This document shows, in pieces, positions 35,736 through 61,041 of a DNA stretch of 64,000 nt (positions within the stretch are counted from its first letter, which is position 1; every line of letters begins with the position of its first letter). The notes beneath the pieces were generated by a model. It worked only from the letters and a program-made list of their open reading frames with translations, was not told the DNA's origin and did not search any database. The stretch comes from a virus. The DNA lies in the IMG/VR virus record IMGVR_UViG_3300045973_000529, positions 1 to 64,000 of that record; one strand, given 5' to 3'. Position numbers and translations under genes: made by a program.

Positions 35736-36731
35736 ATGGACCACATCGAATCTGGTGAACTGAACAACGACTTCCGCACCTGCCTGTACCGACTGAACGA
35801 GTTCGGCATGGAAGCACATCCGCGTGGCACAACAACGAAGGAGCTGCTGAACTACAACATCAGCCTCTTCAACCCGCGGAACCGCATCGTGACCTTCCCT
35901 GACCGGAAGACGAACCTGAAGTACCTGCTCGGTGAGTTCATCTGGTACATCAGCGGTTCGAACGACCCGAAGGGCATTCTCCCGTACGCCAAGTTCTGGG
36001 ACAGCATCCGGAACTCTGGTTCGGAAGAAGGCTACGATGCCGGTACCATCAATTCGAACTACGGCAATCGCCTGTTCGGACACAGCGATCTGCCAGCCTT
36101 CTCAAAGTGGGATCACCGCGGCAATGCGACAGGTACCCTCAGTCAGTGGATCGAGACGGTGTTGTTGCTGGAACGTGACAAGGACAGCCGCCAGGCGATC
36201 ATGAACATTCACGTGCCGTCTGACCGGCACGAAGGCAACAAGGACGTGCCTTGCACATTGACGCTGCACTGGTTCATTCGCGAAGACAAGCTGCATCTGA
36301 TCGTGAACATGCGCAGCAACGACGTGGTCCTGGGCTTCACGAACGACGTGTTCCAGTTCACGATGCTCCAGGAGATGATGGCCGTTCAGCTTCGTGAAAC
36401 ATACCCGAACCTCGAGCTTGGCTGCTACTACCACAACGCCGGGTCCATGCACATCTACGATCGACACTTTGCCATGGCCGAGAAGATCATCGCTGATGAG
36501 CGAGCTCTCGAGATGGCGATGGTTCCGATGGATGTGTGCAATGACACGATCCTGACTGGGCTCGTTGGTGTCGAAGCGGCCTGGCAGGCGGCTGGCGCTC
36601 CTTCAGTCTTCGACTTCGACACCATCCCGGCTTGGGACCTGTTGACACCATACTGGCAGAACCTGGTCCTGATGTGCTTTGGCGAAGATGAAGAAGCCAT
36701 GCACAAGGTGTTTGGTATCGAGGAGCACTGA
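35736..36731 (+). CDS. thymidylate-synthase-family enzyme of the dCMP hydroxymethylase/hydroxylase type
   Basis: DSRQA, DVPCT, MRSNDVVLGFTND (Asp at the ThyA Asn177 position, as in T4 gp42 RSNDVVFGFRND), SMHIYDRHF. Confidence 0.85.
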   Translation: MDHIESGELNNDFRTCLYRLNEFGMEAHPRGTTTKELLNYNISLFNPRNRIVTFPDRKTNLKYLLGEFIWYISGSNDPKGILPYAKFWDSIRNSGSEEGYDAGTINSNYGNRLFGHSDLPAFSKWDHRGNATGTLSQWIETVLLLERDKDSRQAIMNIHVPSDRHEGNKDVPCTLTLHWFIREDKLHLIVNMRSNDVVLGFTNDVFQFTMLQEMMAVQLRETYPNLELGCYYHNAGSMHIYDRHFAMAEKIIADERALEMAMVPMDVCNDTILTGLVGVEAAWQAAGAPSVFDFDTIPAWDLLTPYWQNLVLMCFGEDEEAMHKVFGIEEH

Positions 36732-36732
36732 C

Positions 36733-37116
36733 ATGACACGTCCCGTTTACTCCGTTTCCGTTGAACAGCTTGTGAAGGCCTTGGAAGCGGCTGGCATGGT
36801 CTTTGATCATGAGGAAGTTGACAAGGCCATTGCAGTTGCGGCTCAAAAGCTAGCTGATCAGATCGACGAGGAGATCTTCCAGGAGCTCGTCAAGAAGACG
36901 CCGCCAATCAGTCATGAGTACTATGAGGAAGTCACCGTCGGCGTTGATGCTCTCTGGAAGAAGCTCAAGGTGCTTAACCCATACGACAGTGGCAGCTCTC
37001 TTCACGTTGCTGAGGAGCGCTATGAGCTCGATGGTGTAAAGTACGTTGCGTACTGGGAGATCTGTGGCGATTCAGACGTACCAGAGATCTGCATCATCAA
37101 GGAGTACAAGCGATGA
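36733..37116 (+). CDS. hypothetical protein
   Basis: Start moved to ATG 36733 (AGGAG upstream). Confidence 0.7.
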   Translation: MTRPVYSVSVEQLVKALEAAGMVFDHEEVDKAIAVAAQKLADQIDEEIFQELVKKTPPISHEYYEEVTVGVDALWKKLKVLNPYDSGSSLHVAEERYELDGVKYVAYWEICGDSDVPEICIIKEYKR

Positions 37117-37283
37117 CCAATCCGCAATACAAGTGCCCGAACTGCGGCGGGCACTGCACTGTCGATCAGATGGGTGCTGACTACTGCATCGTGTCTGAAG
37201 AAGGCGATGAAGCCTGGTGCAACTACATCTGTCCACACTGCGAGACCTGGCAAGATCTCGCCGACTATGAAAAGCTCACATGA
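37113..37283 (+). CDS. Zn-ribbon microprotein (56 aa; not in ORF track)
   Basis: MTNPQYKCPNCGG...YICPHCETW; ATGA overlaps at both ends. Confidence 0.75.
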   Translation: MTNPQYKCPNCGGHCTVDQMGADYCIVSEEGDEAWCNYICPHCETWQDLADYEKLT

Positions 37284-39028
37284 GATACGAACAACAGATC
37301 CTCGAGGCGTATGATCGCCTTGGGTTCAAGCCACGCGGACGTCAGGTCGAGGACATCGACAAGATCATGCGGGCTTTCCTCGATGACGGCTTCAAGACTG
37401 TGGTCTTGTCTGCGCCAACTGGCACTGGCAAGTCCATCATCGGTGCCGTCGTCGCTGAAGCGATCCACAAGATCAAGCACCCTGACATGACTGCAGGCGC
37501 CTCGTTCCTGTTGACCCCGACCATCGTTCTGCAGGAGCAGTACCAGAAGTCGTTCGCGTCTCCTGATCCTCTGGACACGAAGTTCCGCCTCATCAAGGGC
37601 GCTGGGAACTTCGAGTGCTCTGCCTTGAGCACACCCTCTGAGATGCAGACGGCTGAGTCGTGCGCAGTCCGGATCTTCCAGAAGGAGAGCATGTTCTCCA
37701 TGATCAACGAGCACTGCGATAGCTGCTTGTTCTCGCTGCAACGCAAGATGCGTGATCGTGCCCGGCACCTGATCTGCAACTACAGCTACTACTTCATTGA
37801 TCGCATGTTCATGGAGCTCCTCGCTCAACGCACCGTGTGCGTGTTCGACGAAGCGCACTTGATCAATGATTTGTTTACCGAGCACAACGCGATCTACTTT
37901 TCTGATTCGCGCCTCAAGAAAATGGTCGAGGAGATCAACGAGACACTTTCTTTGGTCGACCCATCGGTGTTCAAGCTGCTGCAAGAGGTGTGCGGCGATC
38001 TGATGCAGGGCGAGATCAACGATCAGAACTACATGGACTCGTTGGTCAAGTTGGCCGATGCGTACGGTCAGATCTGCGAGGCTGCGAACAACCAGGCCGA
38101 GCGAGCAATTCACGACCACAAGAAGTACCTGAAGCTGTCGAAGCTGTCCAAGAAGTACCATGGCCTTGGCTGCAAGATCGGTGACCTGCTCGAGTATGGC
38201 TACCCACACGCGTTCGAGTTCAAGGAGCGGAACCCGAAGTTCAACCAACACGAGAACGAGATCAGCGTCAAGCCGATCTTCGTGGGCGACATGTTCGACA
38301 AGCTCATCAACGCGGAGTTCAACCTGCTGATGAGTGCCACGTTCTCCAAGCAGTACGCTGAACGGACTCTGACCCTCGAGAACAGCACACACATTCGGTT
38401 GGCACCGTCCTTTCCGAAGGAGAACAAGAAGGTCGTGTTCTTCAAGCCGCAGAAGCTGTCATTCGATACGATGAAGGACCCGAAGGTCGTGAAGCAGCTC
38501 CAGGCGACGTGCTACGAGATTGTTGCGCATCACGTGTCCCTGGGTGAACGAGGGATCATCCTGGCACCTTCGTTTGCGATTGTGGAAGGGATTACACAGG
38601 CCCTCGAAGGAGCCAACGTCGGTGCCCGGATTTTCGAGCACCGACGCGGTGAAAAGCTGGCTGAGGTGATTGGGCGGTTCACGAGGTTCAAGGATGGTCC
38701 AGCAGTGCTACTGACTCCATCTGGGTTCGAAGGTCTCGATCTGGCCGGCGATCTGTCGCGGTACCAGATCATTGTGAAGGCGCCGTTCGGGTCCCTTGGT
38801 GAAGCACGCATGAAGAAGATCCTGGCGAACTGGCCAGACATCTACTCACTGCTCTGCACTATGAAGCTGGTCCAAGGTGCTGGTCGCTCAGTGCGTGGTC
38901 CTGAAGACTGGGCTGTCACATATATGCTCGACAGCAACATCCAACGACTCTGGACCGCGAAGAACATGGAATGGGCCGATGAGTTCCAGACCTCCTTCAC
39001 CTCCTTCCTAGGAACCAGCGACGACTGA
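37280..39028 (+). CDS. DinG/XPD-like SF2 helicase
   Basis: APTGTGKS, VFDEAH, MSAT, EGLDL, QGAGRSVRGPED. Confidence 0.88.
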   Translation: MRYEQQILEAYDRLGFKPRGRQVEDIDKIMRAFLDDGFKTVVLSAPTGTGKSIIGAVVAEAIHKIKHPDMTAGASFLLTPTIVLQEQYQKSFASPDPLDTKFRLIKGAGNFECSALSTPSEMQTAESCAVRIFQKESMFSMINEHCDSCLFSLQRKMRDRARHLICNYSYYFIDRMFMELLAQRTVCVFDEAHLINDLFTEHNAIYFSDSRLKKMVEEINETLSLVDPSVFKLLQEVCGDLMQGEINDQNYMDSLVKLADAYGQICEAANNQAERAIHDHKKYLKLSKLSKKYHGLGCKIGDLLEYGYPHAFEFKERNPKFNQHENEISVKPIFVGDMFDKLINAEFNLLMSATFSKQYAERTLTLENSTHIRLAPSFPKENKKVVFFKPQKLSFDTMKDPKVVKQLQATCYEIVAHHVSLGERGIILAPSFAIVEGITQALEGANVGARIFEHRRGEKLAEVIGRFTRFKDGPAVLLTPSGFEGLDLAGDLSRYQIIVKAPFGSLGEARMKKILANWPDIYSLLCTMKLVQGAGRSVRGPEDWAVTYMLDSNIQRLWTAKNMEWADEFQTSFTSFLGTSDD

Positions 39029-39040
39029 ACCCAAAGCGGT

Positions 39041-39069
39041 GTTACGGCACCGCCTCTTTCGGATAAAAT
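39041..39069 (+). promoter_or_regulatory. putative promoter GTTACG-N17-TAAAAT, leaderless
   Basis: ATG 39076 lies 6 nt after the -10 box. Confidence 0.55.
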
Positions 39070-39075
39070 GCACCT

Positions 39076-40221
39076 ATGACGAAGAGACACCTTTCAACCG
39101 TTGCTGCCAACGTGCTACGAGAAATCAAGCGCGAAGCTGGTCGGGATCGCCGATCACGGCGTTGGCTGTCTGACTGTGAACACCACGAAACTGAATTGGA
39201 TGCACGTATGGACGATCCTGACATCTTGAATCCGCTGAACACCCCATCTGAAGGTGTGATCTTCGGGACCTATGGTCCTGACGAGTGGGCCACAGCAACG
39301 TTTCTGCGTTCAGCGATGGAGCAGGGCAAGAACACCCTGATCGTCGAAGGTACGTGGATCACTCCAGCAAGCTGGACCCTGCATGAGTTCGTGCTGAGCA
39401 TCACCGAGCGCTTCAACTTCATGAGCGACAAGCGAGCCCTCGTGTTCTGGCCGTGGGGCGTTGGCGAATGCACCGTGTCCCGTGGCAAGCTGCACTTCGA
39501 GCTGAACGGTTCACCGTCCGAAGTGATGGCCCTCGTGAAGAAGCTCGATGGGCAGCTCAAGCGTGCTGAGAACCTGATCGAGTGGGTGTACGGCGCGCAC
39601 GGTGAAAGCACCAGCGTTCCGCTGAACTACCGCCCTGCCATCAATGCCGCGTACCCTTGGCTCGAGAAGCCGGTGCTCGAGTTCATCGATGACTACCTTG
39701 ACAGCAAGGCCAGCGTCATCATCCTCATCGGCCCGCCTGGCACCGGCAAGACGACGTTCATCAAGAACCTCATTCACCGCTCGGGTGGTGATGCCAAGGT
39801 CACGTACGACGAGAAGATCATGAACAGCGACTCGCTGTTCGCGAACTTCATCGAGAGCGAAGAGCGCTTCCTGATCATGGAAGATGCTGATGCATTCCTC
39901 GGTGCTCGTGAAGACGGGAACACGATGATGCACCGGTTCCTGAACGTGTCTGATGGCCTCATCAGCGCTGAAGGCAAGAAGCTGGTGTTCAGCACGAACC
40001 TGCCGAACATCCATGACATCGACACCGCGCTGCTGCGTCCTGGTCGCTGCTACGCAATCGTTGAGTTCCGCTCGATGTCGCGTACTGAAGCTCAAGCGGT
40101 GCTCGATGAAATTGGCGCCGATCGCGATCTGCCTGATGGTGACTCCTTCACGCTCGCTGAGCTGTTCAACGTACAGCCGAACGGCGAGACCCAAGCAACG
40201 CGACGTGTCGGGTTCTTCTGA
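39076..40221 (+). CDS. AAA+ ATPase
   Basis: GPPGTGKT, LIMEDAD, VFSTN, IDTALLRPGR. Confidence 0.9.
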   Translation: MTKRHLSTVAANVLREIKREAGRDRRSRRWLSDCEHHETELDARMDDPDILNPLNTPSEGVIFGTYGPDEWATATFLRSAMEQGKNTLIVEGTWITPASWTLHEFVLSITERFNFMSDKRALVFWPWGVGECTVSRGKLHFELNGSPSEVMALVKKLDGQLKRAENLIEWVYGAHGESTSVPLNYRPAINAAYPWLEKPVLEFIDDYLDSKASVIILIGPPGTGKTTFIKNLIHRSGGDAKVTYDEKIMNSDSLFANFIESEERFLIMEDADAFLGAREDGNTMMHRFLNVSDGLISAEGKKLVFSTNLPNIHDIDTALLRPGRCYAIVEFRSMSRTEAQAVLDEIGADRDLPDGDSFTLAELFNVQPNGETQATRRVGFF

Positions 40222-40520
40222 TGGCCGGTAAGATCATCTCATCTCGGCCAGGCAGCGAGGCCGTTGATCTTGAACTGAACTCGCTGTCAATCGCTGAGCT
40301 GCAGTTGATCGGTGCGTATTTGTGGGTCACACGCCTTGGGCGAGGCGTGACCCCGTATCGGGACGCCGCGTTCACTCTGATGACTAAGATCAACAATCTG
40401 ATGGGTGACGACTTTCTTGAGCATGCAGCGATCGATGTCGACATGGTCGTTGACATCATCGATTCGAACGGGGCGGTGACCCGATCCGTTGGACAACACT
40501 TCGTGGAGATTGACCTATGA
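40221..40520 (+). CDS. hypothetical protein
   Basis: TGATG coupling to the ATPase; ATGA overlap downstream. Confidence 0.7.
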   Translation: MAGKIISSRPGSEAVDLELNSLSIAELQLIGAYLWVTRLGRGVTPYRDAAFTLMTKINNLMGDDFLEHAAIDVDMVVDIIDSNGAVTRSVGQHFVEIDL

Positions 40521-41095
40521 CAGCGAACAAGTTCATGATCGAGGGCCTTGACCGCCTTGGCAAGGATACCCTCATCAACGGTATCCAGCACAAGCTCGGG
40601 TACCATCAGGTGCTGCACTTCTCGAAGCCACAGGTGCTCGAGTGCTACCACCCGAAGGACGAGAACGACCCAACTGTCGATCGTCGTGAATCACTGCGTC
40701 GCTACCAGGAAGCGAGCTTCCGGAACATGTTCTCCATCTTCCGTGATGCGAAGTACGCGCATCTGATCGCGAACCGCGCGCACCTCGGTGAGTGCGTCTA
40801 TGCGCCACTCTATCGTGGCTACTCGGGTGACTACGTGTTCGACATGGAGCGTGCCTTCATGGTCGGCATGTATGGCCTGCGACTGGTGCTTCTCATCGAG
40901 GACTTCGAGATCGCCGAGCACTTCATCGATGATGGTGACTCGTTTGACATCACCAAGCGCCGTCTCGAGCAGGAGTACTTCATCACGGCCTATCAGAAGT
41001 CGTGCATTCCCGACAAGCGCATCGTGTGCGTCACTGATCCTGGTACTGGTGGCTTCAAGCGCCCCGACTGGATTCTGAGCGAGGTGCTGGCATGA
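40517..41095 (+). CDS. dNMP (thymidylate-kinase-like) kinase
   Basis: IEGLDRLGKDT P-loop; NRAHLGECVYAPLYRG. Confidence 0.82.
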   Translation: MTANKFMIEGLDRLGKDTLINGIQHKLGYHQVLHFSKPQVLECYHPKDENDPTVDRRESLRRYQEASFRNMFSIFRDAKYAHLIANRAHLGECVYAPLYRGYSGDYVFDMERAFMVGMYGLRLVLLIEDFEIAEHFIDDGDSFDITKRRLEQEYFITAYQKSCIPDKRIVCVTDPGTGGFKRPDWILSEVLA

Positions 41096-41358
41096 ACACT
41101 GAGCAGCTTTTTCGTGCAACGCTGCAGAAGCTGGCGGCCGAAGGCGTCCAGGACGCTGTGCTGGCTCTGAAGCTCGCTGAGTCGATCTCGCTGCCGCCTG
41201 CTGTGCGGGTGGCGATGATCAAGAACGAGCTGCATGAGGCGCACACCTCGCTCTTGGAGGCGCTCAAGCAGAATGACATCGACTGGAGCCGCACCACCGA
41301 CAGACACATCAACCGGGCGTTGAGCAACATCGCTCGGAGCATTGGGGAACTGGCATGA
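41092..41358 (+). CDS. hypothetical protein
   Basis: ATGA-coupled on both sides. Confidence 0.7.
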   Translation: MNTEQLFRATLQKLAAEGVQDAVLALKLAESISLPPAVRVAMIKNELHEAHTSLLEALKQNDIDWSRTTDRHINRALSNIARSIGELA

Positions 41359-41483
41359 CCAATCCCGCTTGGGTGGTCGCAGCCATTGGGTGCGGCTTGA
41401 TTGGCTACCATTTTCAATCATGGCAACTGGGGCTCGGCATCTACATGTGCATCGCTGGGCTCGGCAACTGGATCATCTCATGA
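41355..41483 (+). CDS. small membrane protein (42 aa; not in ORF track)
   Basis: MTNPAWVVAAIGCGLIGYHFQSWQLGLGIYMCIAGLGNWIIS; ATGA overlaps at both ends. Confidence 0.6.
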   Translation: MTNPAWVVAAIGCGLIGYHFQSWQLGLGIYMCIAGLGNWIIS

Positions 41484-41929
41484 CTCTCATCGAACAAATC
41501 CGCACCGAGTACTTGGTACTTCGCAAGGCGCACAACACCGCGGCGGTTGCGTCCCTCAGCACCCTGATCGGTGAAATCGAGAACCTTGCCAAGGGCGGTA
41601 AGGGTGAACTGACCGACGCAGTGGTCGTCACTGTCGTCAAGAAGTTCATCAAGAACATCGACGAGACCCTGCAGGTGGTCGGTAAGGGCGCACCAACTGG
41701 CTTGACCGCCGAGTACAACCCGCTCAATGCGCTGAACGCTGAACGTCGGCTGTATGAGCAGTTCCTGCCGAAGCAGCTGACCGAGACCGAAATCGCGGCG
41801 CTGATCGACACGCTGGTCGTGACGCATGGTGCCAAGAACGTCGGCGACGTGATGAAGCTCCTGAAGCAGAATCACGCTGGCACCTATGACGGTGCCGTCG
41901 CTTCCAAGATCCTCAAGGCCAAGTTCTAA
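41480..41929 (+). CDS. GatB/YqeY-domain protein
   Basis: Start moved to ATG 41480; LS.L.GEI, VVKKFIK, YEQFLPKQLT..EI..LI, GDVMK.LK...G..DG. Confidence 0.85.
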   Translation: MTLIEQIRTEYLVLRKAHNTAAVASLSTLIGEIENLAKGGKGELTDAVVVTVVKKFIKNIDETLQVVGKGAPTGLTAEYNPLNALNAERRLYEQFLPKQLTETEIAALIDTLVVTHGAKNVGDVMKLLKQNHAGTYDGAVASKILKAKF

Positions 41930-41938
41930 GGAGCCATC

Positions 41939-42319
41939 ATGATCCCAGTCGCAGATGCAGTCACTCTCGGCGAGAAGCACAAGCTTCGTCAAGTCATCAT
42001 CTTCGGTTGGGACGGCCGAGAGACGTTCGTGACCACATGGGGTGGCTCTGATTTCGACAGTGCCGGAGCTGCTGGTGCTGCGAATCGAATCAAGGACCAG
42101 TGGGACTGGCCGGAGAACACGATTGTCGAGGGCGAGCGTGTCCAGAAGCTGTACAATCGCATTGCTGAGCTTGAAGCGCAACTGGCGGGTGCCGTCAAGC
42201 AGTGTGCCGATGCTGGTGATGCTGCGTACTCTGCTCGCTGCCCATTTATCGGCGACTACATCGTCGAATCGATGGGCCTTGGCGTTGCCGAAGGTGCAGC
42301 TGCTTGGCGGTCTAAGTGA
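41939..42319 (+). CDS. hypothetical protein
   Basis: AAGGAG RBS. Confidence 0.7.
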   Translation: MIPVADAVTLGEKHKLRQVIIFGWDGRETFVTTWGGSDFDSAGAAGAANRIKDQWDWPENTIVEGERVQKLYNRIAELEAQLAGAVKQCADAGDAAYSARCPFIGDYIVESMGLGVAEGAAAWRSK

Positions 42320-42456
42320 ACCCTCTGCACGAGCTCGAGAAGGCCATGGCTATGGTCTTCGCTGCTGACCCAGGTTGGTGGTGGATGCTGTGTCTAATCC
42401 CGATGGCTGCTCTGGTGGCAGCCATCATCGTTGAGAACTTCTGGAACGACAAATGA
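42316..42456 (+). CDS. small membrane protein (46 aa; not in ORF track)
   Basis: GTG start overlaps the upstream TGA; WWWMLCLIPMAALVAAIIV; stop overlaps the glycosyltransferase ATG. Confidence 0.5.
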   Translation: MNPLHELEKAMAMVFAADPGWWWMLCLIPMAALVAAIIVENFWNDK

Positions 42457-43577
42457 AGATTGCAGTAATCAAGTTGGGTGGTCGCATCACCTGGAACACG
42501 GACGGAGCAGTTGCTCCAGGTGAAGCCGTTTCGATCTGCAAGGCCCTGTCTCGCGGTGGGGCTGAGGTGCATGTCTTCACGAAGATCCTGTCAAAGGATG
42601 TACTGCATCCCAGCCTCATGTGGCACAACATCGCTGAAGCCGATCAGGCGGATCTTGATGCGCTCGACAAGCTGGTGGTGATCAACGGGAACGTGAACTT
42701 CTTCGGCGGTGCCGAGGATCCCGAGCAGATCCTGAACTACTCGATCATCAACAACTTCCAGGGCACAGTCGTGTACGTGATGTGCGACCCCGAGCTGCCA
42801 CTGCTGCAGATCTGGCCGAACGTGTCGAAGAAGCCATGGGGCGTGAACTACCGCGAGAAGGATCTGAACATCGTGCGCAAGGACATCCGTGTTCTGTCGC
42901 AGCCGTTCAATCTGGAAGCGATGAAGAAGCACTGGAAGAAGGGTGCCGTTCCGGTCGCCGAGTTCTTCCACTTCCCGATGGAGCGCTTCCCGCTGCTGAA
43001 TGAGTGGCTGAAGCCGATGGAAGAACCGAAGGTGGACTTGCTGTACGGCGGTACACCTCGCGGTGGTCGTCGGATCCCCAATCTGTTCAAGTGGTACTGG
43101 AACCTGCCGAAGGACATCAGCGTCGAGATCTTCGGGTCCATCGATGCTGACGACTTCTCCAAGCACCCGAAGGTCGGCATGACGGCGTTGATGGACAAGA
43201 ACGTTCGCCCGCCCGAGTTCACTGGCAAGGTCAAGTATGATCAGGTTCTTCCGAAGATGAACACCGGTCTGGCGCATCTCGTCACTGGTGACGGGTCGTA
43301 CGAAGAGCTCGACATCATTCCACAGCGCACGATGGAGAACATCGCGGCTGGAAACGTCGTGTTCGTCGATGCGAACATGGACAAGGCTCGCCGCATCTAC
43401 CCGAAGGGCACGTTCGCGCACGAGTTCCTGTACGTCGCCAGTCAAGAAGAGCTCGTCGAGCGGCTGCGGTACGTGAAGGACGATGAGATGCTGCGACAAG
43501 ACGTGCTGCAGTCGCAGTGTTTTGCCCAGGACTTCGCACCTGATGAGTTCTGTCGTTCGCTGGTGGAGGTGCTGTGA
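42453..43577 (+). CDS. T4 DNA beta-glucosyltransferase-like glycosyltransferase (GT-B)
   Basis: MKIAVIKLG, PLLQIWPNVSKKPW and DLLYGGTPRGGRR resemble T4 BGT MKIAIINMG, PFSQSWPNVKNRPW and DVIYGGSFRSGQR (from memory). Confidence 0.85.
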   Translation: MKIAVIKLGGRITWNTDGAVAPGEAVSICKALSRGGAEVHVFTKILSKDVLHPSLMWHNIAEADQADLDALDKLVVINGNVNFFGGAEDPEQILNYSIINNFQGTVVYVMCDPELPLLQIWPNVSKKPWGVNYREKDLNIVRKDIRVLSQPFNLEAMKKHWKKGAVPVAEFFHFPMERFPLLNEWLKPMEEPKVDLLYGGTPRGGRRIPNLFKWYWNLPKDISVEIFGSIDADDFSKHPKVGMTALMDKNVRPPEFTGKVKYDQVLPKMNTGLAHLVTGDGSYEELDIIPQRTMENIAAGNVVFVDANMDKARRIYPKGTFAHEFLYVASQEELVERLRYVKDDEMLRQDVLQSQCFAQDFAPDEFCRSLVEVL

Positions 43578-43834
43578 AGATGACCTACGCTGACGACAAG
43601 GTCGAGTGCCAGCACGTTCGCACAATGCGTGTGAACGCCAAAGCAGATGATCGCCAATACCACGTCGTGTCGCATCTCGAAGTTGAGCGAGACGGCTACG
43701 CCCCGTACCTCAAGGGCATCTGTCACGGTGACTACGTGGAGCTGACGCTCTGCCTTGACTGCGGCAAGGTGATTTCCCGCGAGTTCCCCATCGGTGACGA
43801 AGAATTGCGCGAGGCTTTTGGCATCGAGGAATAA
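43574..43834 (+). CDS. hypothetical protein with Cys motifs
   Basis: CQH...LCLDCG; GTG start overlaps the upstream stop. Confidence 0.7.
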   Translation: MKMTYADDKVECQHVRTMRVNAKADDRQYHVVSHLEVERDGYAPYLKGICHGDYVELTLCLDCGKVISREFPIGDEELREAFGIEE

Positions 43835-43924
43835 AGCCGTGCGGCTTTTTCCGCTATTGCGTCCCAAGCTTCGTTGCCTATCGTTTCTGCGCTAGGTACA
43901 ATGGCACCTGTAACAAGGACACCC

Positions 43925-44614
43925 ATGTTCAAACGACCAACTCTCGTCTCCATCACAGCACCCACTTGCGCTGGCAAGAACTACCTCGCTGAGGTGCTGT
44001 TCGCAAATGGCTTCAATCGGCTGGTGAGCACCACTGACCGTGCACCTCGGGCCGGTGAAATCGAAGGGGTGCACTACTTCTTCATCACCACTGAGCAAAG
44101 CAAGCTGAAGGAACAGTACGATCTGTTCGCTGAATTGATCACGTACAACGGCGTTCGGTATGGCGTCACGAAGGAAGAGATGGAGCGCAAGACTGCGGTC
44201 GGACTGCCACCACCCGTCGTGATTCTCGAACCGCAGGGTGTGTTCGAGTACCGCAAGTACTGCCAGGCGAACGGCATCGACATGTTCCGCATCTTCATTG
44301 ACACGGCCGAAAGCGTGCGCCTTGCTCGCCTCGCGAAGCGTGGCGCTGCTGACGTCATTGCGGCGCTGAAGAACGTGACTTTTGATCACGCGCCAGCTGA
44401 GGGCGAAGCTGATGCCGTTGCTCTCGAAGCCGTGGCGAACGTCATGAAGGTGAACAACAAGCGCGTCATGGCGATCATTGAGCAGGAGCGGACCTGGGAC
44501 ACAGCTCACCTCTGGCACTCAATCGTCGATGGTGAAGACACGGATGTGGCACTTGCGCAGATCAAGGCCGACATCGAATACCGGAACAGCCACCCATTCG
44601 ACTTCAACGCATGA
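43925..44614 (+). CDS. guanylate-kinase-like protein
   Basis: Start moved to ATG 43925; APTCAGKN, VSTTDRAPRAGEIEGVHYFF, YNGVRYG. Confidence 0.85.
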   Translation: MFKRPTLVSITAPTCAGKNYLAEVLFANGFNRLVSTTDRAPRAGEIEGVHYFFITTEQSKLKEQYDLFAELITYNGVRYGVTKEEMERKTAVGLPPPVVILEPQGVFEYRKYCQANGIDMFRIFIDTAESVRLARLAKRGAADVIAALKNVTFDHAPAEGEADAVALEAVANVMKVNNKRVMAIIEQERTWDTAHLWHSIVDGEDTDVALAQIKADIEYRNSHPFDFNA

Positions 44615-45096
44615 GAGTCATCACCGCTCCTGATCCAGTGCCGATGCGCGATGCGCTTGGGACCGAGGTCTTCCTTGCTGGCTCGATCGAGCAGGGCAAG
44701 GCGCGCGACTGGCAGCCAGAGGTCTGTGCCGCGCTCGTGCCGTTCAATGCGCTCGTGTTCAATCCTCGGCGCTTGGTCTGGGACCCGACCTGGGATCAAG
44801 ACGTCTCGAACACAGAACTCGTGACCCAAGTGAACTGGGAGCTCGATCTGATTGACCGAGCTGAGATCGTGTTCTTCTACTTCCAAGCTGGAACCTTGTC
44901 GCCAATCTCGTTCCTCGAGTTCGGCATGCAGGTGCGCAATCGCCGCAAAGACATCGTTGTGGTTTGTGAAGCCGGGTTCTGGCGGCAGGCGAACATCCAA
45001 ATCACTGCTGCCCGAAACAACGTGCCAGTCGCTCTGACCCTTGAAGAAGGCATCGAGAAGCTGGTCAAGCTTGTGAAACAACGGAGTCTTCCATGA
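44611..45096 (+). CDS. nucleoside 2-deoxyribosyltransferase-like protein
   Basis: VFLAGSI...DWQ, VFNPRR, QVNWE...I..A.IVFFYF, SPISF.EFG. Confidence 0.8.
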   Translation: MRVITAPDPVPMRDALGTEVFLAGSIEQGKARDWQPEVCAALVPFNALVFNPRRLVWDPTWDQDVSNTELVTQVNWELDLIDRAEIVFFYFQAGTLSPISFLEFGMQVRNRRKDIVVVCEAGFWRQANIQITAARNNVPVALTLEEGIEKLVKLVKQRSLP

Positions 45097-45332: not shown

Positions 45333-45342
45333 CCAGGAAAGT

Positions 45343-45400
45343 GTAACAGTTCCAGAAAACTGTTACGGGCTGTGTACGAACACGGCGGCGGTGTTAAGAT
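45343..45400 (+). promoter_or_regulatory. GTAACAGT-N8-ACTGTTAC palindrome plus GTGTAC-N17-TAAGAT promoter, leaderless
   Basis: ATG 45408 lies 7 nt after the -10 box. Confidence 0.65.
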
Positions 45401-45407
45401 GCCTAGC

Positions 45408-46919: not shown

Positions 46920-47422
46920 TGATCATGGACATGAACGCCGAACAAACGAAGCAACAGTTCGCCTTCTTCGCCGCCTGGCGCAAGATCACCGAGTCACAGC
47001 CCAAGCTGTTCGAGCTCGTGGTCATCAAGTCGTTCGCTGGCACGATGGACTGGGACTGGCTCGAGCCGGCGAGTGACCGCATGTACTTCGCCGAGAACTT
47101 CGGCCCGACCGAGTACTGGATGACCGCTGCCGACTTCCAGCGCCTGGCTCCTACGGGTGTCGCAGAGCACCTCCGGCCGGTCGATGAAGAGTCCAACACC
47201 CGCCGTCTGGAACGTCTCCAGAAGGTCACCGGTGTCGCCGAGACTGTGCTCGAGTACGCTCCCAACGAGTACACGTTCATCGATCTCGACGCGGTGTTGG
47301 AACGGCAGATGACCGCGCCCACGCTGACCGATGAGCCCCTCAACGAGCTCAAGTTCCCGGTGATCGACACTGATCTGCCCGAGGTTCCAGTCCAGTTCGG
47401 CTTCGATCATCCGAACGCCTGA
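46916..47422 (+). CDS. hypothetical protein
   Basis: Start moved to ATG 46916 (AAGGA; ATGA overlap). Confidence 0.7.
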   Translation: MMIMDMNAEQTKQQFAFFAAWRKITESQPKLFELVVIKSFAGTMDWDWLEPASDRMYFAENFGPTEYWMTAADFQRLAPTGVAEHLRPVDEESNTRRLERLQKVTGVAETVLEYAPNEYTFIDLDAVLERQMTAPTLTDEPLNELKFPVIDTDLPEVPVQFGFDHPNA

Positions 47423-47471
47423 ACACTATCTGTCGGCTAATGCCTGTTCTCGCTCGCCGTTGAGGTCTGCC

Positions 47472-47555
47472 ATGTTCACTCATCTTCTCCAAACCCGCAC
47501 CCAGCGCTGTCCGCACGGGGTGTCCCATCTGAACCGCTGCCTGAGGTGCGACTGA
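47472..47555 (+). CDS. 27-aa Cys/His microprotein (not in ORF track)
   Basis: MFTHLLQTRTQRCPHGVSHLNRCLRCD; GAGG RBS; TGATG coupling into 47555. Confidence 0.55.
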   Translation: MFTHLLQTRTQRCPHGVSHLNRCLRCD

Positions 47556-49096
47556 TGCCTGAAATCTCACGCTGGGAGAGAACTCCCAACACGACCATGA
47601 AGGTCTTCTCCAAGCTGTTCGTCGGCGTTCGTGACGGCGGTGCTGCGCATGTTCCGCTTGGGTTCGCAACTCCGTACGAGGAGAACGCCGCGGGTCGCAA
47701 GCGCCAGGAGACCGTGGTGAACTGGCTCGGCGGCACCAGTCGTATCGTAGTCGATCCCAAGACTGGGTTGTACGAGCAAGACGACAAGGGTCGATACGTC
47801 TACGAGGAGTTCGTTCCGGACACGCGCATCATCGACAACGAACCCTGTCCCGGTTTCAAGATCACGGACGATGTGAAACGGGTGTACTGGGGCGGTGGCA
47901 ATGTCGTCTGGCGCGTTGAAGACCCGCGTGGTTACGAGCTCGAGATCCAGTCCCAGAACTTGATGGCGCTGATCCAGTCGTGCGGCATCCTCGAGGGCGG
48001 TGAAATCCCAGGTCGCTGCGTCTGGGGCCGCTCAAGTGGCGACAACATTCTGCTGCACGAGACCAGCGACGAGTACAAAGCTGCCTTCAAGGCCGCCGAG
48101 ACCCTCAAGGCGCCGAAGAAACTCGGCAAGAAGGATCGTCGTGTCGGTGGCCTGTACACCCGAGTCGACGGCTCCCTCGGCATCTATCTCGGCATCGTGC
48201 ACGTCACGGTGATGAACTACCCGGCACAAGATGGTGCACTCGCGCTTGCCCGAAACTGGGATGCTTCAGAGACGGACTGGTTCAAGGCACCTGGTATGCT
48301 TCAGCCGGTCGCGGTGTCCACCTCCAACTACCCGGTGATGTCCAGCGTCGAGTACGAAGCAGTGCTGGACATCACCTCGGTGCTGGATGACAAGGACCGC
48401 CCGACGCCTGGTGTCACGATGAAGCTCTACAAGCAGGCACCGCTGGTCGCTGATGAAGGCGAGACGTACGATCTGGCCATCACCAACGAGTACCTGCGGG
48501 ACCTGCAGTGGACGTTCGCCAGCTCGAACACCTTCTGCGCCCGGATCCTGGCAGTGACGACGTCTCCGATCAAGAATCCGCTGGTGGTCGCCGTGCCCTG
48601 GGCGGCGACGAAGTACGACGCCAAACTGACACAGTTGGAGAGGTACGTCGCCCAGAACTGCACTCGCGAGATCACCTACAAGGACGAAGGCACGTTCCGT
48701 GCTCGTTGGCCAGCGACTCAGATCCTGGGCTATCAACACACTGATGTGCTCATCGTTCCAGAGCTTGGCCCGATGTCCGACATCGAGCACATTGGCGAGG
48801 ATCGTCAGTACATCACCCGTGGCGTGGCAGCGGCGCCTGATTCATTGACGGTGGCGCTGCCATGCATGCTCGGTGCCGGGTACTTCATCCATCGTGGCGC
48901 TGAAGATAGCCGGCACGCCATGCAAGTGCGCTCGTACATGTACTCGCGGTACTCCTACCCAGCCAGCCGCGAAGTCAAGGCGTACGTGCTGCCGAAGTTC
49001 TCAACCGCGGACGAGTTCATCGACTGGTTCAAGGCGCAGTACAATGATGGAAACCTCTCCACGATCTCGGTCGTGGAGGACTCCCGCTCAACCTGA
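47555..49096 (+). CDS. large hypothetical phage protein (513 aa)
   Basis: Start at ATG 47555 via TGATG overlap; no recognisable catalytic motif. Confidence 0.8.
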   Translation: MPEISRWERTPNTTMKVFSKLFVGVRDGGAAHVPLGFATPYEENAAGRKRQETVVNWLGGTSRIVVDPKTGLYEQDDKGRYVYEEFVPDTRIIDNEPCPGFKITDDVKRVYWGGGNVVWRVEDPRGYELEIQSQNLMALIQSCGILEGGEIPGRCVWGRSSGDNILLHETSDEYKAAFKAAETLKAPKKLGKKDRRVGGLYTRVDGSLGIYLGIVHVTVMNYPAQDGALALARNWDASETDWFKAPGMLQPVAVSTSNYPVMSSVEYEAVLDITSVLDDKDRPTPGVTMKLYKQAPLVADEGETYDLAITNEYLRDLQWTFASSNTFCARILAVTTSPIKNPLVVAVPWAATKYDAKLTQLERYVAQNCTREITYKDEGTFRARWPATQILGYQHTDVLIVPELGPMSDIEHIGEDRQYITRGVAAAPDSLTVALPCMLGAGYFIHRGAEDSRHAMQVRSYMYSRYSYPASREVKAYVLPKFSTADEFIDWFKAQYNDGNLSTISVVEDSRST

Positions 49097-49103
49097 GTAT
49101 GCC

Positions 49104-49178
49104 ATGAAACTCGACTCCATCTGGTTCGTGATCCTCATCGTGTCGATCATTGCCCTCTTCTTCATTCCGCACCTGTGA
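49104..49178 (+). CDS. 24-aa single-TM peptide
   Basis: MKLDSIWFVILIVSIIALFFIPHL; fills the gap between genes. Confidence 0.5.
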   Translation: MKLDSIWFVILIVSIIALFFIPHL

Positions 49179-49185
49179 GACCCCC

Positions 49186-49653
49186 ATGCGCTTCTACTCC
49201 TTCGTGAACGCTCTGTACCTCAACCCCATTCAGTACGGCATCCAGACGGCGCACTGCGTCTCCGAGATGGCCGTCGACGTTGCTCGCACTTCGCTGAATG
49301 CGGTCTTCTACGACTGGGCCGAGAACCACAAGACGATCATCATCTGCAATGGCGGCAATGTCGCCATGCTCGAGGACCTGTACACACAGCTCATCGATCC
49401 GACAGATGCATTTGGTCTGCCCCTCGTGAAGTTCTACGAGGACGAGCAGTCGCTGAACGGGGCGCTGACCTCGGTGGCGCTCATCGTGCCGGCGAAGTTC
49501 TACGACGCGAAGTTCGTGCCGGATCCGACGTCACCGCATGAACTGTCCGGGGTGTACCAGTACATCGACCCCGATGGCCGCACGACACGGTACTCGATCG
49601 ACACTCCTGAGTTCCAGTTCATTCAGCTGCTCAAGTCCTTCAGGCTGGCATGA
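49186..49653 (+). CDS. peptidyl-tRNA hydrolase 2 (PTH2)-like protein
   Basis: Start moved to ATG 49186; IQ.AH..SEM, W..NHKTIII, FYEDEQSLNGALTSVALIVP. Confidence 0.7.
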   Translation: MRFYSFVNALYLNPIQYGIQTAHCVSEMAVDVARTSLNAVFYDWAENHKTIIICNGGNVAMLEDLYTQLIDPTDAFGLPLVKFYEDEQSLNGALTSVALIVPAKFYDAKFVPDPTSPHELSGVYQYIDPDGRTTRYSIDTPEFQFIQLLKSFRLA

Positions 49654-49886
49654 CTCCGCAACTGCCACCAAACCCGATGACCATCACGCCACCCGTGAAG
49701 ATGATGCTCACGGCGGACGGTGTGCTCGCGATGTTCCAAGGCCGCAGACTGGATGCCTCGCTCTTCGCCGATGTGAGGGCCGAACTCCAGAACCTGCGGG
49801 ACTGGGACAACTACTTCCGTACTACCGATTCGCTGCGTGAGGGTGCCAAGCGTGCGCTCCATCGCATTCTTGATCAGGAGCCTTGA
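49650..49886 (+). CDS. hypothetical protein
   Basis: ATGA overlap. Confidence 0.65.
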   Translation: MTPQLPPNPMTITPPVKMMLTADGVLAMFQGRRLDASLFADVRAELQNLRDWDNYFRTTDSLREGAKRALHRILDQEP

Positions 49887-50326
49887 TGTACAAGAACCCA
49901 ACCCCAGTCGCAGTGGCCCTCATCCGTGTCGGTGACGCCGACATCAAGCTCATCGCTGGACGCCGAAGCATCGAGCCGTTCATCGGCGGACTCGCGTTTC
50001 CTGGCGGGTACGTGAACGAGGGCGAAAGCGCCGAGGTGGCCGTTGCTCGCGAAGTCTACGAGGAGATCGGCATGGTCACCGAGCCAGGGCACTGGCGGCC
50101 AATGCTGACTCGTGTCACGCCTGACAACAAGCTCCTGATCTTCATGCGACACATCTTCACGCTGACGACTGCCCAGTACGTCGAGAACGTGCGAAGCCTC
50201 TTCATCGTCGCCAACAACTTCACGCCGAACACTGAAGTCTCGGAGCTGGTGCTGGTTGACACCGGCGACACCCTGTGCTTCCCCTTGCACCAGGAACTTC
50301 TCGATCGTAAGCCTCTATGGGAGTGA
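49886..50326 (+). CDS. NUDIX hydrolase
   Basis: YKNPTPVAV; Nudix box GGYVNEGESAEVAVAREVYEEIG. Confidence 0.93.
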   Translation: MYKNPTPVAVALIRVGDADIKLIAGRRSIEPFIGGLAFPGGYVNEGESAEVAVAREVYEEIGMVTEPGHWRPMLTRVTPDNKLLIFMRHIFTLTTAQYVENVRSLFIVANNFTPNTEVSELVLVDTGDTLCFPLHQELLDRKPLWE

Positions 50327-50544
50327 CCTACGACATCACCCAGGCACCACCTGGTGCCACGCACGTACTGCCAGCTGACCCGCTCGGATTTGACCAGCAG
50401 CCGACGTGGATGAAGTGGGGTTACGCCTTCACAGGGCCTGAGTCTGGTCGGGCGTTCTACCGGTGGTACAGCTGGGACCGTGGTGAGTGGCGTCCTGACA
50501 ACAGCTTCCACCCGCGTGAGAACACGGTCATCCACAAGCTCTGA
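50317..50544 (+). CDS. hypothetical Trp-rich protein
   Basis: 75 aa; overlaps the NUDIX end by 10 nt. Confidence 0.6.
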   Translation: MGVTYDITQAPPGATHVLPADPLGFDQQPTWMKWGYAFTGPESGRAFYRWYSWDRGEWRPDNSFHPRENTVIHKL

Positions 50545-50621
50545 ACCGACCTAATCCCGGAACCGGGAGGAGTAACGGCTAGGTTCGGTTACAATCTATG
50601 CATACCCACCAAGGAGCCAGC

Positions 50622-51251
50622 ATGGACAATCACCTCGCCGTTCAATGTATCGATCGCCAGATCGCTGCCATCTCCCGCCTGCACGCCGTGATCAACACGA
50701 ACGAGTACCACTCAATCCTCAGCGCCGTGACTGCGGTTGCGAAGGATGGGTACAAGCGCCGTGTCATGATCGCAGGGGTCGGCAAGAACAGCAACATCGC
50801 CTCCAAGATCAGCGAGACGATGGCCAGTCTCGGCATCCCCTCGTTCTACCTGAACGTCAGCCACTGCGGTCACGGTGACTTCGGTTTCATCGGCCACGAG
50901 GACCTCATCATCCACATCAGCCGCTCGGGCACGACACGCGAAATGGTCGAGGCGATGAGCCACATCAAGAAGATCCGTCCACAGGTCGTGCAGGTCCTGA
51001 TCCACTGCAAGCCGAACAAGCCAGTGAACAACGATGCCGACATCGAGCTCTTCATCGGCGCAGTTGCTGAAGGCGACGAGTTCGAGCTCGCGCCGACCAC
51101 CTCCACAACCGCGTTGCTCTGTACCCTCGACACGATCTCGGTACAGGTCTCGCACGCCATCGGCTTCAAGCGCCTCGACTTCCTGAAGTTCCACCCGGAT
51201 GGCGCACTCGGTGCGATGCTCAAGGCTGAACAAACCAAGGACACTCAATGA
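50622..51251 (+). CDS. SIS-domain sugar-phosphate isomerase (KpsF/GutQ arabinose-5-phosphate isomerase-like, no CBS domains)
   Basis: Start moved to ATG 50622 (AAGGAG); GVGKNSNIASKI..T..SLG.PS, HGDFG.I, ISRSG.T.E, LAPTTSTT, F.KFHP.GALG. Confidence 0.9.
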   Translation: MDNHLAVQCIDRQIAAISRLHAVINTNEYHSILSAVTAVAKDGYKRRVMIAGVGKNSNIASKISETMASLGIPSFYLNVSHCGHGDFGFIGHEDLIIHISRSGTTREMVEAMSHIKKIRPQVVQVLIHCKPNKPVNNDADIELFIGAVAEGDEFELAPTTSTTALLCTLDTISVQVSHAIGFKRLDFLKFHPDGALGAMLKAEQTKDTQ

Positions 51252-51421
51252 ATTGCATCAAGTGTGGGAAGTCGATCTTCGAGATCGGTGCATTCCTTAC
51301 CCGCGTGAATGACAAGGGCGGGAACGGCATCTGGGAATGCAGCCCCTCGTGCGCTGCTGAGCTCACCCAAGAGCAAGCCCTGCTTGCTGCCGTCGAAGGT
51401 CCTGAACAGGAACCGAAATGA
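51248..51421 (+). CDS. small Cys-containing protein (57 aa; not in ORF track)
   Basis: MNCIKCG...WECSPSC; ATGA overlaps at both ends. Confidence 0.65.
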   Translation: MNCIKCGKSIFEIGAFLTRVNDKGGNGIWECSPSCAAELTQEQALLAAVEGPEQEPK

Positions 51422-51603
51422 TCTACGCAACACCAGTGACCGAGCACGGCGAGCGGTCAGTGCATCTCATCTGCACGAACGAGGAAATCGGCATCATCTC
51501 AAATGAGCTCGGTGAGCACGCATTCTATGCGCATGACACAGTGCCGCTTACACTCGACCTGCTCGAAGCTGTTGCCAACTTTCTGAGGACACTCAACGTA
51601 TGA
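51418..51603 (+). CDS. hypothetical protein
   Basis: ATGA overlaps at both ends. Confidence 0.65.
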   Translation: MIYATPVTEHGERSVHLICTNEEIGIISNELGEHAFYAHDTVPLTLDLLEAVANFLRTLNV

Positions 51604-53264
51604 ACCTCGTCATTGTCGCTGGGGGCCTTGGCTCCCGCCTAGCCCCGCTCACAAACTTCATCCCTAAGTTCCTCGTGAACATTGGGAAGGAGACCGGGTT
51701 CGTGAAGATGTTGGAATACTGGCGTGAGTACCAGCCCGAGTCGATCACTGTGATCGTCCACAGCCGGTACAAGGGCTTGGTGCAAGCGTACTTCGATCTG
51801 TATTTCAAGAACGATCCACTGATGAAGACATGGTCGGATGACGGTGAAGAAATCCGTACTCCGTTCATCATCAAGACGGTCGACGAAGCGAACGGCTCGG
51901 CGCACGCGATCATGACGACTTGCGGTGATCATCTGAACAAGCAGCCAGTCCTGTTCACTTGGTGTGATGTGATTCCAGGCGAGTCCTTCGACATCGAGGA
52001 ACTGAACCACGGCGGCGCCTTCGCGTTCACGAACTATGACTACCCGAACAGGTACGACCTGGTTCAACCAATGGTGGCGCCGGATGCGCCAAAGCTCGGC
52101 TGGGCTGACCGTGTGCCAGCCATTCGGTCAGATGGTCGTGGTGGTCTGTTCGGCGTGTACTACGTCAGCACCTTCGAGAAGAAGCCCTTCACCGATGGTC
52201 AGGACTTCGTCGAGCTGCTTGGGCGGTACTCGCACCGTGGCTTCGTGTACGAGGTCAAGATGCCGAGCATTGTCGACTTCGGCGACATGCCAAAGCTCGA
52301 GCGTGTTCGCTCAACAGCCGATGCAGCTCGGTCCTTCAACTCGGTCAAGATGCACGGTGACCTCGTGCTCAAGAGCGCGCTGACAGCACAGGGCGAAGGT
52401 CTCATCAAGCGTGAAGTCGCTTGGTACAGCGAGCTCGATGCGATGCAATCGACTGTCCGTCGGCCGAAGCACTGGGCGAGCTCTGATGGCACGTCGTTTG
52501 TGATGTCGAAGGTCAAGGGCGTACCAGTCTGGGAACAGTGGTCGAAACTCGACGATGACGGTCGTGCAATGGTGCTGTCACGCATCTTCGAGCAGCTCGA
52601 TACGCTGCACTGCCACAAACGCGAGGTCGGTACAGTCCAAGTCCAGACCGACATTCGTGTCGAGGCGTACGACAAGCTCATTGCCAGGTACGACGAGATC
52701 AAGCCGATGATCGATGCCTTCGGCCCAGTGCAGTGGGTGAACTGCCACAAGCTCGAGTGCCTCGATCCGAAGGTCACGATCAAGCGCTTGTACGGGGAGT
52801 TGGCAAAGCAGTACAGCACGTCACTGCACAGTTTGATCCACGGTGACCTGCAGATGTCGAACACGATGATCGATCCTGACACCCTTGAGGTGACGCTGAT
52901 CGATCCACGTGGGTACTTCGGCAAGAGCACCACCTATGGTTGCGCTGATTACGACATCGCGAAGCTGTTGTACTCGCTCAGCGGCTACGATCTGTTCAAC
53001 TACTCGAAGGACTTCCATCTGATCCACAATGGGCTGGGCAGCGTTGGCGACGGGAGTCAACAGTGGTTCATCCAGTTCGACATCCCAACACCCAACACGG
53101 GCGGATGTCAGCCGATCTTCGAGCAGCGCTTCACGCGTGTTCACCAGCTCTGGTTGGCCGTGATCTGGATCGGGCTGGCGCAGTACATCAAGAACGACCC
53201 AGTGAAGTCGGTTGCGGCGCACTACCACGGTTTGGCCATGGCCGAAAGGATCCTTGCATCATGA
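51600..53264 (+). CDS. NTP-sugar pyrophosphorylase fused to an APH/choline-kinase-like domain
   Basis: N-terminal VAGGLGSRL.PLT..IPK.L; C-terminal IHGDLQMSN...LIDPRGYFG...YD.AKL. Confidence 0.88.
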   Translation: MNLVIVAGGLGSRLAPLTNFIPKFLVNIGKETGFVKMLEYWREYQPESITVIVHSRYKGLVQAYFDLYFKNDPLMKTWSDDGEEIRTPFIIKTVDEANGSAHAIMTTCGDHLNKQPVLFTWCDVIPGESFDIEELNHGGAFAFTNYDYPNRYDLVQPMVAPDAPKLGWADRVPAIRSDGRGGLFGVYYVSTFEKKPFTDGQDFVELLGRYSHRGFVYEVKMPSIVDFGDMPKLERVRSTADAARSFNSVKMHGDLVLKSALTAQGEGLIKREVAWYSELDAMQSTVRRPKHWASSDGTSFVMSKVKGVPVWEQWSKLDDDGRAMVLSRIFEQLDTLHCHKREVGTVQVQTDIRVEAYDKLIARYDEIKPMIDAFGPVQWVNCHKLECLDPKVTIKRLYGELAKQYSTSLHSLIHGDLQMSNTMIDPDTLEVTLIDPRGYFGKSTTYGCADYDIAKLLYSLSGYDLFNYSKDFHLIHNGLGSVGDGSQQWFIQFDIPTPNTGGCQPIFEQRFTRVHQLWLAVIWIGLAQYIKNDPVKSVAAHYHGLAMAERILAS

Positions 53265-61028: not shown

Positions 61029-61041
61029 GGTACAATGAACT

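Follow-up and report, generated by a model that had tools for sequence, protein, structure and literature searches.

A jumbo-phage gene block that may join a T4-type hydroxymethylcytosine pathway to a phage-made supply of UDP-arabinose

The first 64 kb of IMG/VR virus record IMGVR_UViG_3300045973_000529 (64,000 nucleotides, hereafter the window) carry, at 35.7-53.3 kb, a set of genes that we lean towards reading as a T4-like route to glycosylated 5-hydroxymethylcytosine (hmC), extended by a phage-made supply of uridine diphosphate (UDP)-arabinose. The record (G000) is linear, 190,499 bp long and judged ~52% complete; it represents a large uncultured jumbo phage with a G+C content of 55-60% by sequence composition. 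All genes at 35.7-53.3 kb lie on the plus strand, next to helicases, an AAA ATPase and topoisomerase II subunits, with a canonical ThyA just beyond the window; this region is the early replication and nucleotide block of the phage. Among named phages, Ralstonia phage RsoM2USA is its nearest relative, and a megablast search of phage records with the 19-kb block returned zero matches. A sequence-only reading of the window had proposed that five of the genes, encoding a thymidylate synthase (TS)-family enzyme, a nucleotide kinase, a beta-glucosyltransferase (BGT) homologue, a sugar isomerase and a nucleotidyltransferase/kinase fusion, form a dispersed cytosine-hypermodification pathway. All five open reading frames (ORFs) are confirmed on the plus strand, each with a family match; the isomerase gene, placed from 50622, may start at 50598. 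They are listed here with a second kinase, which that reading lacked, and a NUDIX hydrolase.

35736..36731, plus strand: TS-family enzyme, predicted deoxycytidine monophosphate (dCMP) hydroxymethylase (5-hm-dCMP synthase); PF00303 (Thymidylat_synt), 6.7e-24
40517..41095, plus strand: Tmk-like P-loop nucleotide kinase, 192 aa, candidate hm-dCMP kinase; phrog_761 'thymidylate kinase', 7.8e-6
42453..43577, plus strand: T4 BGT homologue, 374 aa, predicted hmC-DNA glycosyltransferase; PF09198, 2.8e-28, and phrog_7922, 3.5e-55
43874..44614, plus strand: guanylate-kinase (Gmk)-like NMP kinase, second candidate dNMP kinase; PF00625, 1.1e-12, and phrog_1815, 1e-27
49883..50326, plus strand: MutT/NudG-like NUDIX hydrolase, possible dCTP-clearing enzyme (a weak link); PF00293, 8.4e-11
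50598..51251, plus strand: CBS-less arabinose-5-phosphate isomerase (Api), a SIS domain; phrog_5670 'arabinose 5-phosphate isomerase', 1.4e-71
51600..53264, plus strand: AfhE-type bifunctional sugar kinase/NDP-sugar pyrophosphorylase, 554 aa; PF00483 (NTP_transferase) and PF01636 (APH), phrog_4098, 8e-106

The TS homologue bears on the identity of the base. Its best solved relatives in PDB profile matches are the CMP hydroxymethylase MilA (1.7e-25) and T4 dCMP hydroxymethylase (6e-16). Alignment and a motif scan place D143 (in DVPC), D169 and D177 in 'MRSNDVVLGFTND' in agreement with T4 gp42, and catalytic Cys146, in DVPC, lines up with its counterparts in T4 gp42 and the phage's ThyA. The cytosine-type Asp named in the sequence-only reading is indeed found at the position of E. 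coli ThyA N177, where GFTND aligns to T4 GFRND and the phage's own ThyA has N; at the Leu143 position, where an acidic residue lets water in, the TS homologue and T4 share D143 and the phage's ThyA has L143. The positions that set the CMP preference of MilA, K133 and A176, are R and S, the deoxy-enzyme type, as read by hand. An acidic residue 143 and Asp177 are common to 5-hydroxy-dCMP synthases and hydroxymethylases, and the former are told apart by an Asn where ThyA has D169 (PMC13326640). A motif scan finds E143/N169/D177 in 16/16 T4-like loci with arabinose genes; D143/D169/D177 is the signature of the TS homologue and of 8/8 jumbo relatives with a readable motif (seven clade relatives and RsoM2USA), none of which has Asn in place of D169. 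Because the D143/D169/D177 set matches T4 gp42 and the R/S positions are of the deoxy type, the enzyme is predicted to be a dCMP hydroxymethylase that should turn dCMP into 5-hm-dCMP. The base is thus predicted to be hmC-derived, unlike that of every characterised arabinose system. RB69 and DLP3 DNA contains arabinosylated 5-hydroxycytosine (Lee et al., PMC13326640), and the hydroxyl is made by a flavin-binding TS homologue, in RB69 not by a U32 enzyme (PMC13326640); the picture of RB69 in the sequence-only reading is dated. The canonical ThyA (G000 65162-66118, 3.6e-99) has L143/D169/N177, from which we conclude that the normal dTMP route is retained beside the cytosine-type enzyme.

The BGT homologue is full length, matching PDB 1bgt at 1.7e-38 across residues 1-355 of 374, and close relatives of it, 63-67% identical, lie on 310-342-kb contigs. 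In an alignment of 12 BGT sequences (A2), T4 residues E22, D100, G187-G188, R191, R195 and R269 are invariant and E272 is kept; in window numbering E24, D112, R203, R207 and R292 are invariant in the 12 sequences and E295 is kept. From BGT structures we take D100 and E22 to be catalytic and R191, R195, R269 and E272 to be UDP ligands. The alignment supports retention of the catalytic base and UDP-phosphate ligands of T4 BGT, and we expect the protein to be active as an inverting DNA glycosyltransferase with a UDP-sugar as donor. For the sugar-pocket residues of T4 BGT, we found nothing usable in the literature. Searches of the 190-kb record with GT1 and GT2 families identified no other transferase, and the Aat-type arabinosyltransferases of Acinetobacter phage Maestro (Maestro_080, _078 and _077) have no BLAST or phmmer match in G000 or its relatives G002, G003 and G005.

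Api and the fusion suggest the source of the sugar. Api is 51% identical to Maestro_084 and matches PDB entries 5uqi (8e-24), 3etn and KdsD 2xhz, as well as the NCBIfam models KpsF/GutQ and KdsD. Read by hand, the KdsD catalytic residues K59, H88, E111, E152 and H193 are all aligned and kept; the numbering, counted by hand, is that of E. coli KdsD. A heptose reading (GmhA/HldE) was rejected on family matches, as Api matches KdsD/GutQ/KpsF and not GmhA; HddC-type models match the fusion weakly, over its first 70 residues alone. The Api and fusion genes of several relatives carry GIY-YIG/NUMOD3 seg-like homing endonucleases within or beside them (G005 298737-299942; L101:5600-6802; L102:6108-6854 and 8814-9455), and the Api reading frame continues into the endonuclease in G005, G004 and L101. 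Api is extended at its C terminus in G005 and G004; considered as a phosphatase, the extension was rejected since it is this GIY-YIG endonuclease.

The fusion joins an N-terminal NTP-transferase to a C-terminal APH-fold kinase and has full-length homologues in 369 T4-like phage records, with 98-99% coverage against Maestro, AM101 and other T4-like phages. It is 33% identical over its full length to Maestro_083, and 30-35% identical to the studied clade; the motifs GxGxRL...K, HGD..N and IDPRGYFG are invariant across jumbo and T4-like sequences. Maestro is among the phages listed with arabinosylated 5-hydroxycytosine (PMC13326640). AfhE of HY126 phosphorylates arabinose-5-P at C1, AfhF takes off the 5-phosphate, and AfhE then yields UDP-arabinose (PMC13326640). 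These matches support assigning Api and the fusion to the phage families of the enzymes by which HY126-, RB69- and DLP3-type phages make UDP-D-arabinofuranose. AfhF (phrog_1238) is present in 16/16 T4-like loci; in the jumbo relatives, HAD_SAK_2 and NT5C-like proteins are encoded far from the block. A 167-aa protein (49150-49653, plus strand), PTH2/Bit1-fold and peptidyl-tRNA hydrolase-like, is encoded within 2-4 kb of the Api/fusion pair in each of the 11 jumbo loci where it was found. As a candidate for the missing phosphatase this 'hydrolase' was rejected, its model (predicted local distance difference test, pLDDT, 94) having the PTH2/Bit1 peptidyl-tRNA hydrolase fold.

Two kinases could act on hm-dCMP. 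The Tmk-like kinase, with the P-loop EGLDRLGKDT, gave no match in a Pfam search; the arabinosylating phage Maestro has its cluster kinase in the same family, phrog_761 (Maestro_079, 1.9e-27), and some of the 292 metagenome homologues of the Tmk-like kinase have PF02223 or are named thymidylate kinase. The Gmk-like kinase matches PDB guanylate kinases at ~5e-10, is syntenic in all relatives and stands immediately upstream of Api in the sub-clade L101/L102. For removal of dCTP the sequence-only reading had seen no dCTPase in the window, and MazG, MazG-like and dUTPase family searches were likewise all negative; it had also seen no U32-family hydroxylase there, an enzyme for which no search by family was made. 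Elsewhere in the genomes of 4/4 near-complete relatives, a PRA-PH-type all-alpha NTP pyrophosphatase (PF01503), homologous to RsoM2USA ORF477, is a candidate dCTPase. The NUDIX hydrolase matches NCBIfam MutT (3.6e-10) and a pyrimidine dNTP diphosphatase model (3.3e-5); its gene lies just upstream of Api and is found in G002, G004, G005 and locus L094, but not in every relative.

TS, BGT, Api and the fusion occur together in seven records (this one and G002, G003, G004, G005, G007 and G009). Synteny in these seven related records argues that the gene set is not a chance grouping. Where mapped, in G002, G003 and G005, gene order is conserved over ~20 kb and the TS, Tmk-like kinase, BGT, Gmk-like kinase, Api and fusion genes are all syntenic. 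A close-relative scan with the fusion protein alone gave no match, and fusion homologues were retrieved with an alignment query instead of a single sequence. In RsoM2USA and the uncultured phage LR756500, TS and BGT are a few kb apart and the fusion is absent; therefore, the sugar module appears to be an addition to an hmC system. The 16 T4-like IMG/VR loci have the tight order Api-AfhE-AfhF-TS-Aat-kinase with BGT absent, and in Acinetobacter phage AB1I1M-1 a BGT cassette sits where Maestro has its arabinose cassette. Thus, the jumbo clade combines parts that elsewhere are alternatives: a hydroxymethylase-type TS and BGT accompany arabinose genes in 0/16 of the T4-like arabinose loci, and we found no description of TS/BGT with the arabinose module in the literature searched, including PMC13326640. 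Distant homologues of the Api/fusion pair occur in a cyanophage, Vibrio phages and a giant-virus metagenome-assembled genome (MAG), with roles unassigned.

Relatives encode a second conserved transferase, GT4-like, in a genome region missing from this record, whose missing part matches G002 124-299 kb. The gene is shared by G002, G003, G009 and G005, in the last of which it is split into two ORFs, and the model of its product has a GT-B/GT4-like fold that matches SenB, HepE, T4 alpha-glucosyltransferase (1y6f), BshA (3mbo) and MshA (3c4q). For the arabinosyltransferases of DLP3 and RB69, the reported folds are those of BshA and MshA (PMC13326640); a profile comparison of the GT4-like protein with the Maestro arabinosyltransferases, made with thin profiles, gave no signal. 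Neither transferase co-varies cleanly with the sugar genes, because the GT4-like gene is also in RsoM2USA and L101/L102 lack BGT at the syntenic place. In G002 the surrounding island (237594-238667, minus strand; 236745-237365, 241732-242835 and 244001-244504, plus strand), which is conserved in relatives and missing from this record, encodes the GT4-like transferase (237594-238667), a HAD_SAK_2 phosphatase domain, a CCA-adding tRNA nucleotidyltransferase and an NT5C-like nucleotidase.

Other genes accompany the block. A PF15891 nucleoside 2-deoxyribosyltransferase-like protein (44611-45096, plus strand; PDB 4mcj at 6e-22) adjoins the Gmk-like kinase and is conserved there; its superfamily includes MilB- and DNPH1-type (d)NMP N-glycosidases, and it might have a role in clearing the nucleotide pool. 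A 516-aa ORF (47546-49096, plus strand) has matches in PHROG alone (phrog_30990, 2.6e-32), is non-syntenic in relatives and may be a mobile insert. Between the BGT and Gmk-like kinase genes, L102 (2308-2787) and G002 (317201-317704) encode a weak UDG-superfamily protein (E = 0.003) that has no counterpart in the window. Downstream of the block lie an alanine dehydrogenase (57732-58829), a topoisomerase II subunit pair (59139-62379) and two DnaJ-domain proteins (62838-64000).

Put together, these parts would make the following route. The TS homologue would convert dCMP to 5-hm-dCMP, the Tmk-like kinase, the Gmk-like kinase or both could phosphorylate it, and the host NDK and the phage polymerase would carry hmC into DNA; either the NUDIX enzyme or the all-alpha NTP pyrophosphatase of the relatives could clear dCTP. 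On the sugar side, Api would yield arabinose-5-P, the kinase domain of the fusion would make arabinose-1,5-bisphosphate from it, some host or distant HAD phosphatase would remove the 5-phosphate, and the N-terminal domain of the fusion would yield UDP-arabinose. The pentose may then be put on hmC-DNA directly by the BGT homologue, or be added by the GT4-like transferase of the relatives, beside or on top of a BGT-added sugar. Use of the phage-made sugar by the BGT-fold enzyme is one of two options, to which we give roughly equal weight.

Several observations weigh against a route of this kind. The donor sugar of the BGT homologue is not readable from its sequence. Both transferase candidates, BGT and GT4-like, occur in RsoM2USA without the sugar genes, and in L101/L102 the helicase, ATPase, Gmk-like kinase, Api and fusion genes are consecutive, while BGT and the Tmk-like kinase are both missing from the syntenic place. 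With identity at 33%, a different sugar phosphate could be the substrate of the fusion. An AfhF-type HAD phosphatase (phrog_1238) was found in none of G000, G003, G005 or G002, the last being complete, with terminal repeats. No dCTPase, PF01503 proteins included, was found in the sequenced half of this genome (the 190-kb record).

The alternatives differ in where the sugar goes and in what it is attached to. A donor switch, by which the BGT-fold enzyme moves arabinose from UDP-arabinose directly to the hydroxymethyl group and arabinosyl-hmC becomes the sole or main base, is possible, if not something we would bank on. BGT is the sole recognisable glycosyltransferase in the 190-kb record, has intact catalytic residues and is encoded in one co-oriented early block with Api, which it precedes by 7 kb, an arrangement conserved in seven records. 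Yet orthologous BGTs exist without arabinose genes in RsoM2USA and LR756500, relatives have a GT4-like transferase with a known arabinosyltransferase fold, the 26.5-kb contig G010 spans the syntenic block and keeps Api and the fusion with no BGT match, and the record covers about half of the genome. The hybrid proposed by the sequence-only reading is supported in part, as a cytosine-hypermodification set that joins T4-type hydroxymethylase and BGT with an RB69-type isomerase and fusion; the pairing of BGT with the phage-made sugar stays conjectural, given BGT and TS without sugar genes, the GT4-like gene in relatives and a sub-clade lacking BGT at the syntenic place. Equally tentative is a division of labor in which BGT glucosylates hmC with host UDP-glucose and the GT4-like transferase, or an enzyme from the missing half, adds arabinose elsewhere or on the glucose, giving a mixed or disaccharide modification. 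T4 itself works with an alpha/beta glucosyltransferase pair, and both the conservation of the GT4-like gene in G002, G003, G005 and G009 and the match of its model to T4 alpha-glucosyltransferase, BshA, MshA, SenB and HepE fit such an arrangement. It is harder to reconcile with the presence of this gene in RsoM2USA, which has no arabinose genes, with its location far from the block beside a CCA-adding enzyme and an RNA-repair-type HAD domain, with the lack of detectable profile similarity to the Maestro arabinosyltransferases, and with its having been seen in relatives, its region being missing from this record.

We consider it unlikely that the nucleoside diphosphate (NDP)-sugar made by Api and the fusion feeds virion-protein or host-envelope glycans, leaving hmC or glucosyl-hmC alone in the DNA. 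Neither a dedicated transferase nor a phosphatase adjoins the two genes, and the cyanophage, Vibrio phage and giant-virus pairs have no assigned role, as this would allow; but the pair lies in a DNA-modification cluster in all 16 T4-like loci from the AfhE search and likewise in three annotated T4-like phage records (PMC13326640), and here it stands in an early replication/nucleotide block, not among late structural genes. Least credible, and in our view very improbable, is that the TS homologue makes 5-hydroxy- or 5-methyl-dCMP, so that the system would simply be one more case of 5-hydroxycytosine arabinosylation, or else a 5mC system. MilA is the nearest solved relative of this enzyme as it is of RB69 gp48 and DLP3 gp80, and identity is only ~23% to T4 gp42 and Maestro_081 alike. 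However, the enzyme keeps D169 where all tested 5-hydroxy-dCMP synthases have N169, its D143 is acidic as in hydroxymethylases where methyl-forming enzymes are hydrophobic, and its partner is a homologue of BGT, an enzyme known to act on hmC.

Which restriction, CRISPR and glycosylase defences a phage evades, and which it sets off, depends on the sugars that its cytosines carry. Of the two known chemistries, one puts glucose on hydroxymethylcytosine and the other puts arabinose (or hexoses) on hydroxycytosine; the clade appears to cross them. Such a crossing would show that the genes for sugar supply travel among phage families separately from the base-making enzyme and the transferases, and the clade also offers a natural case in which to ask how a DNA glycosyltransferase changes its donor. 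Its T4-type hmC genes stand with a two-gene UDP-arabinose module that had so far been known only where 5-hydroxycytosine is arabinosylated. This previously undescribed combination predicts a new sugar-decorated base. A more speculative proposal is that the DNA of this widespread clade of soil and freshwater jumbo phages carries 5-(arabinosyloxymethyl)cytosine, an undescribed base, made by a BGT-fold enzyme switched from UDP-glucose to phage-made UDP-pentose; the same structure was first, wrongly, given to RB69. As the neighbourhood encodes no 5-phosphatase, the 5-phosphate might even stay on the donor and so on the base. The clade is common in metagenomes, as the homologues of the Tmk-like kinase alone attest, and its relative RsoM2USA, which is cultured, could serve as an hmC-only comparison system.

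Four known systems are close enough for comparison. The T4 set comprises gp42 dCMP hydroxymethylase, gp1 dNMP kinase, gp56 dCTPase and alpha- and beta-glucosyltransferases. Our block shares with it D143/D169/D177 and a BGT with E22, D100, R191, R195 and R269, and the relatives add a GT-B enzyme like T4 AGT in fold and an all-alpha NTP pyrophosphatase. In contrast to T4, identity is 29% for BGT and ~23% for TS, the kinases are of Tmk and Gmk type where T4 has gp1, the genes lie scattered across 17 kb in a jumbo genome, and a UDP-arabinose module is added where T4 needs no sugar-synthesis genes. With the Afh cluster of RB69, DLP3 and HY126 (PMC13326640, which cites He et al. and Mahler et al.) the block has in common Api (51%), an AfhE-type fusion (33%, full length), the PHROG of the Tmk-like kinase and the cytosine-type Asp177 of the TS homologue. 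It differs in that the TS homologue lacks D169N, and so is predicted to hydroxymethylate and not to hydroxylate, in that AfhF phosphatase and Aat-family transferases (phrog_3891 and phrog_8302 types) are absent, and in that the block transferase is BGT-fold and the genes are non-contiguous.

The ADP-/GDP-heptose pathway (GmhA, HldE or HddA/HddC, GmhB) follows the same logic of SIS isomerase, anomeric kinase, phosphatase and nucleotidyltransferase, whereas the isomerase here is of KdsD/GutQ/KpsF type with KdsD catalytic residues and the kinase is APH-fold, not PfkB or GHMP. RsoM2USA (MG752970) and LR756500, whose DNA chemistry is not reported in PMC8504454, share TS (41% identical) and BGT (39.5% and 36.7%, respectively) with our phage, and RsoM2USA also has the GT4-like gene and PRA-PH-type NTP pyrophosphatase of the jumbo relatives. 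They differ in the sugar module: neither has an AfhE homologue, RsoM2USA lacks Api, and LR756500 has a distant SIS protein alone (28% identical).

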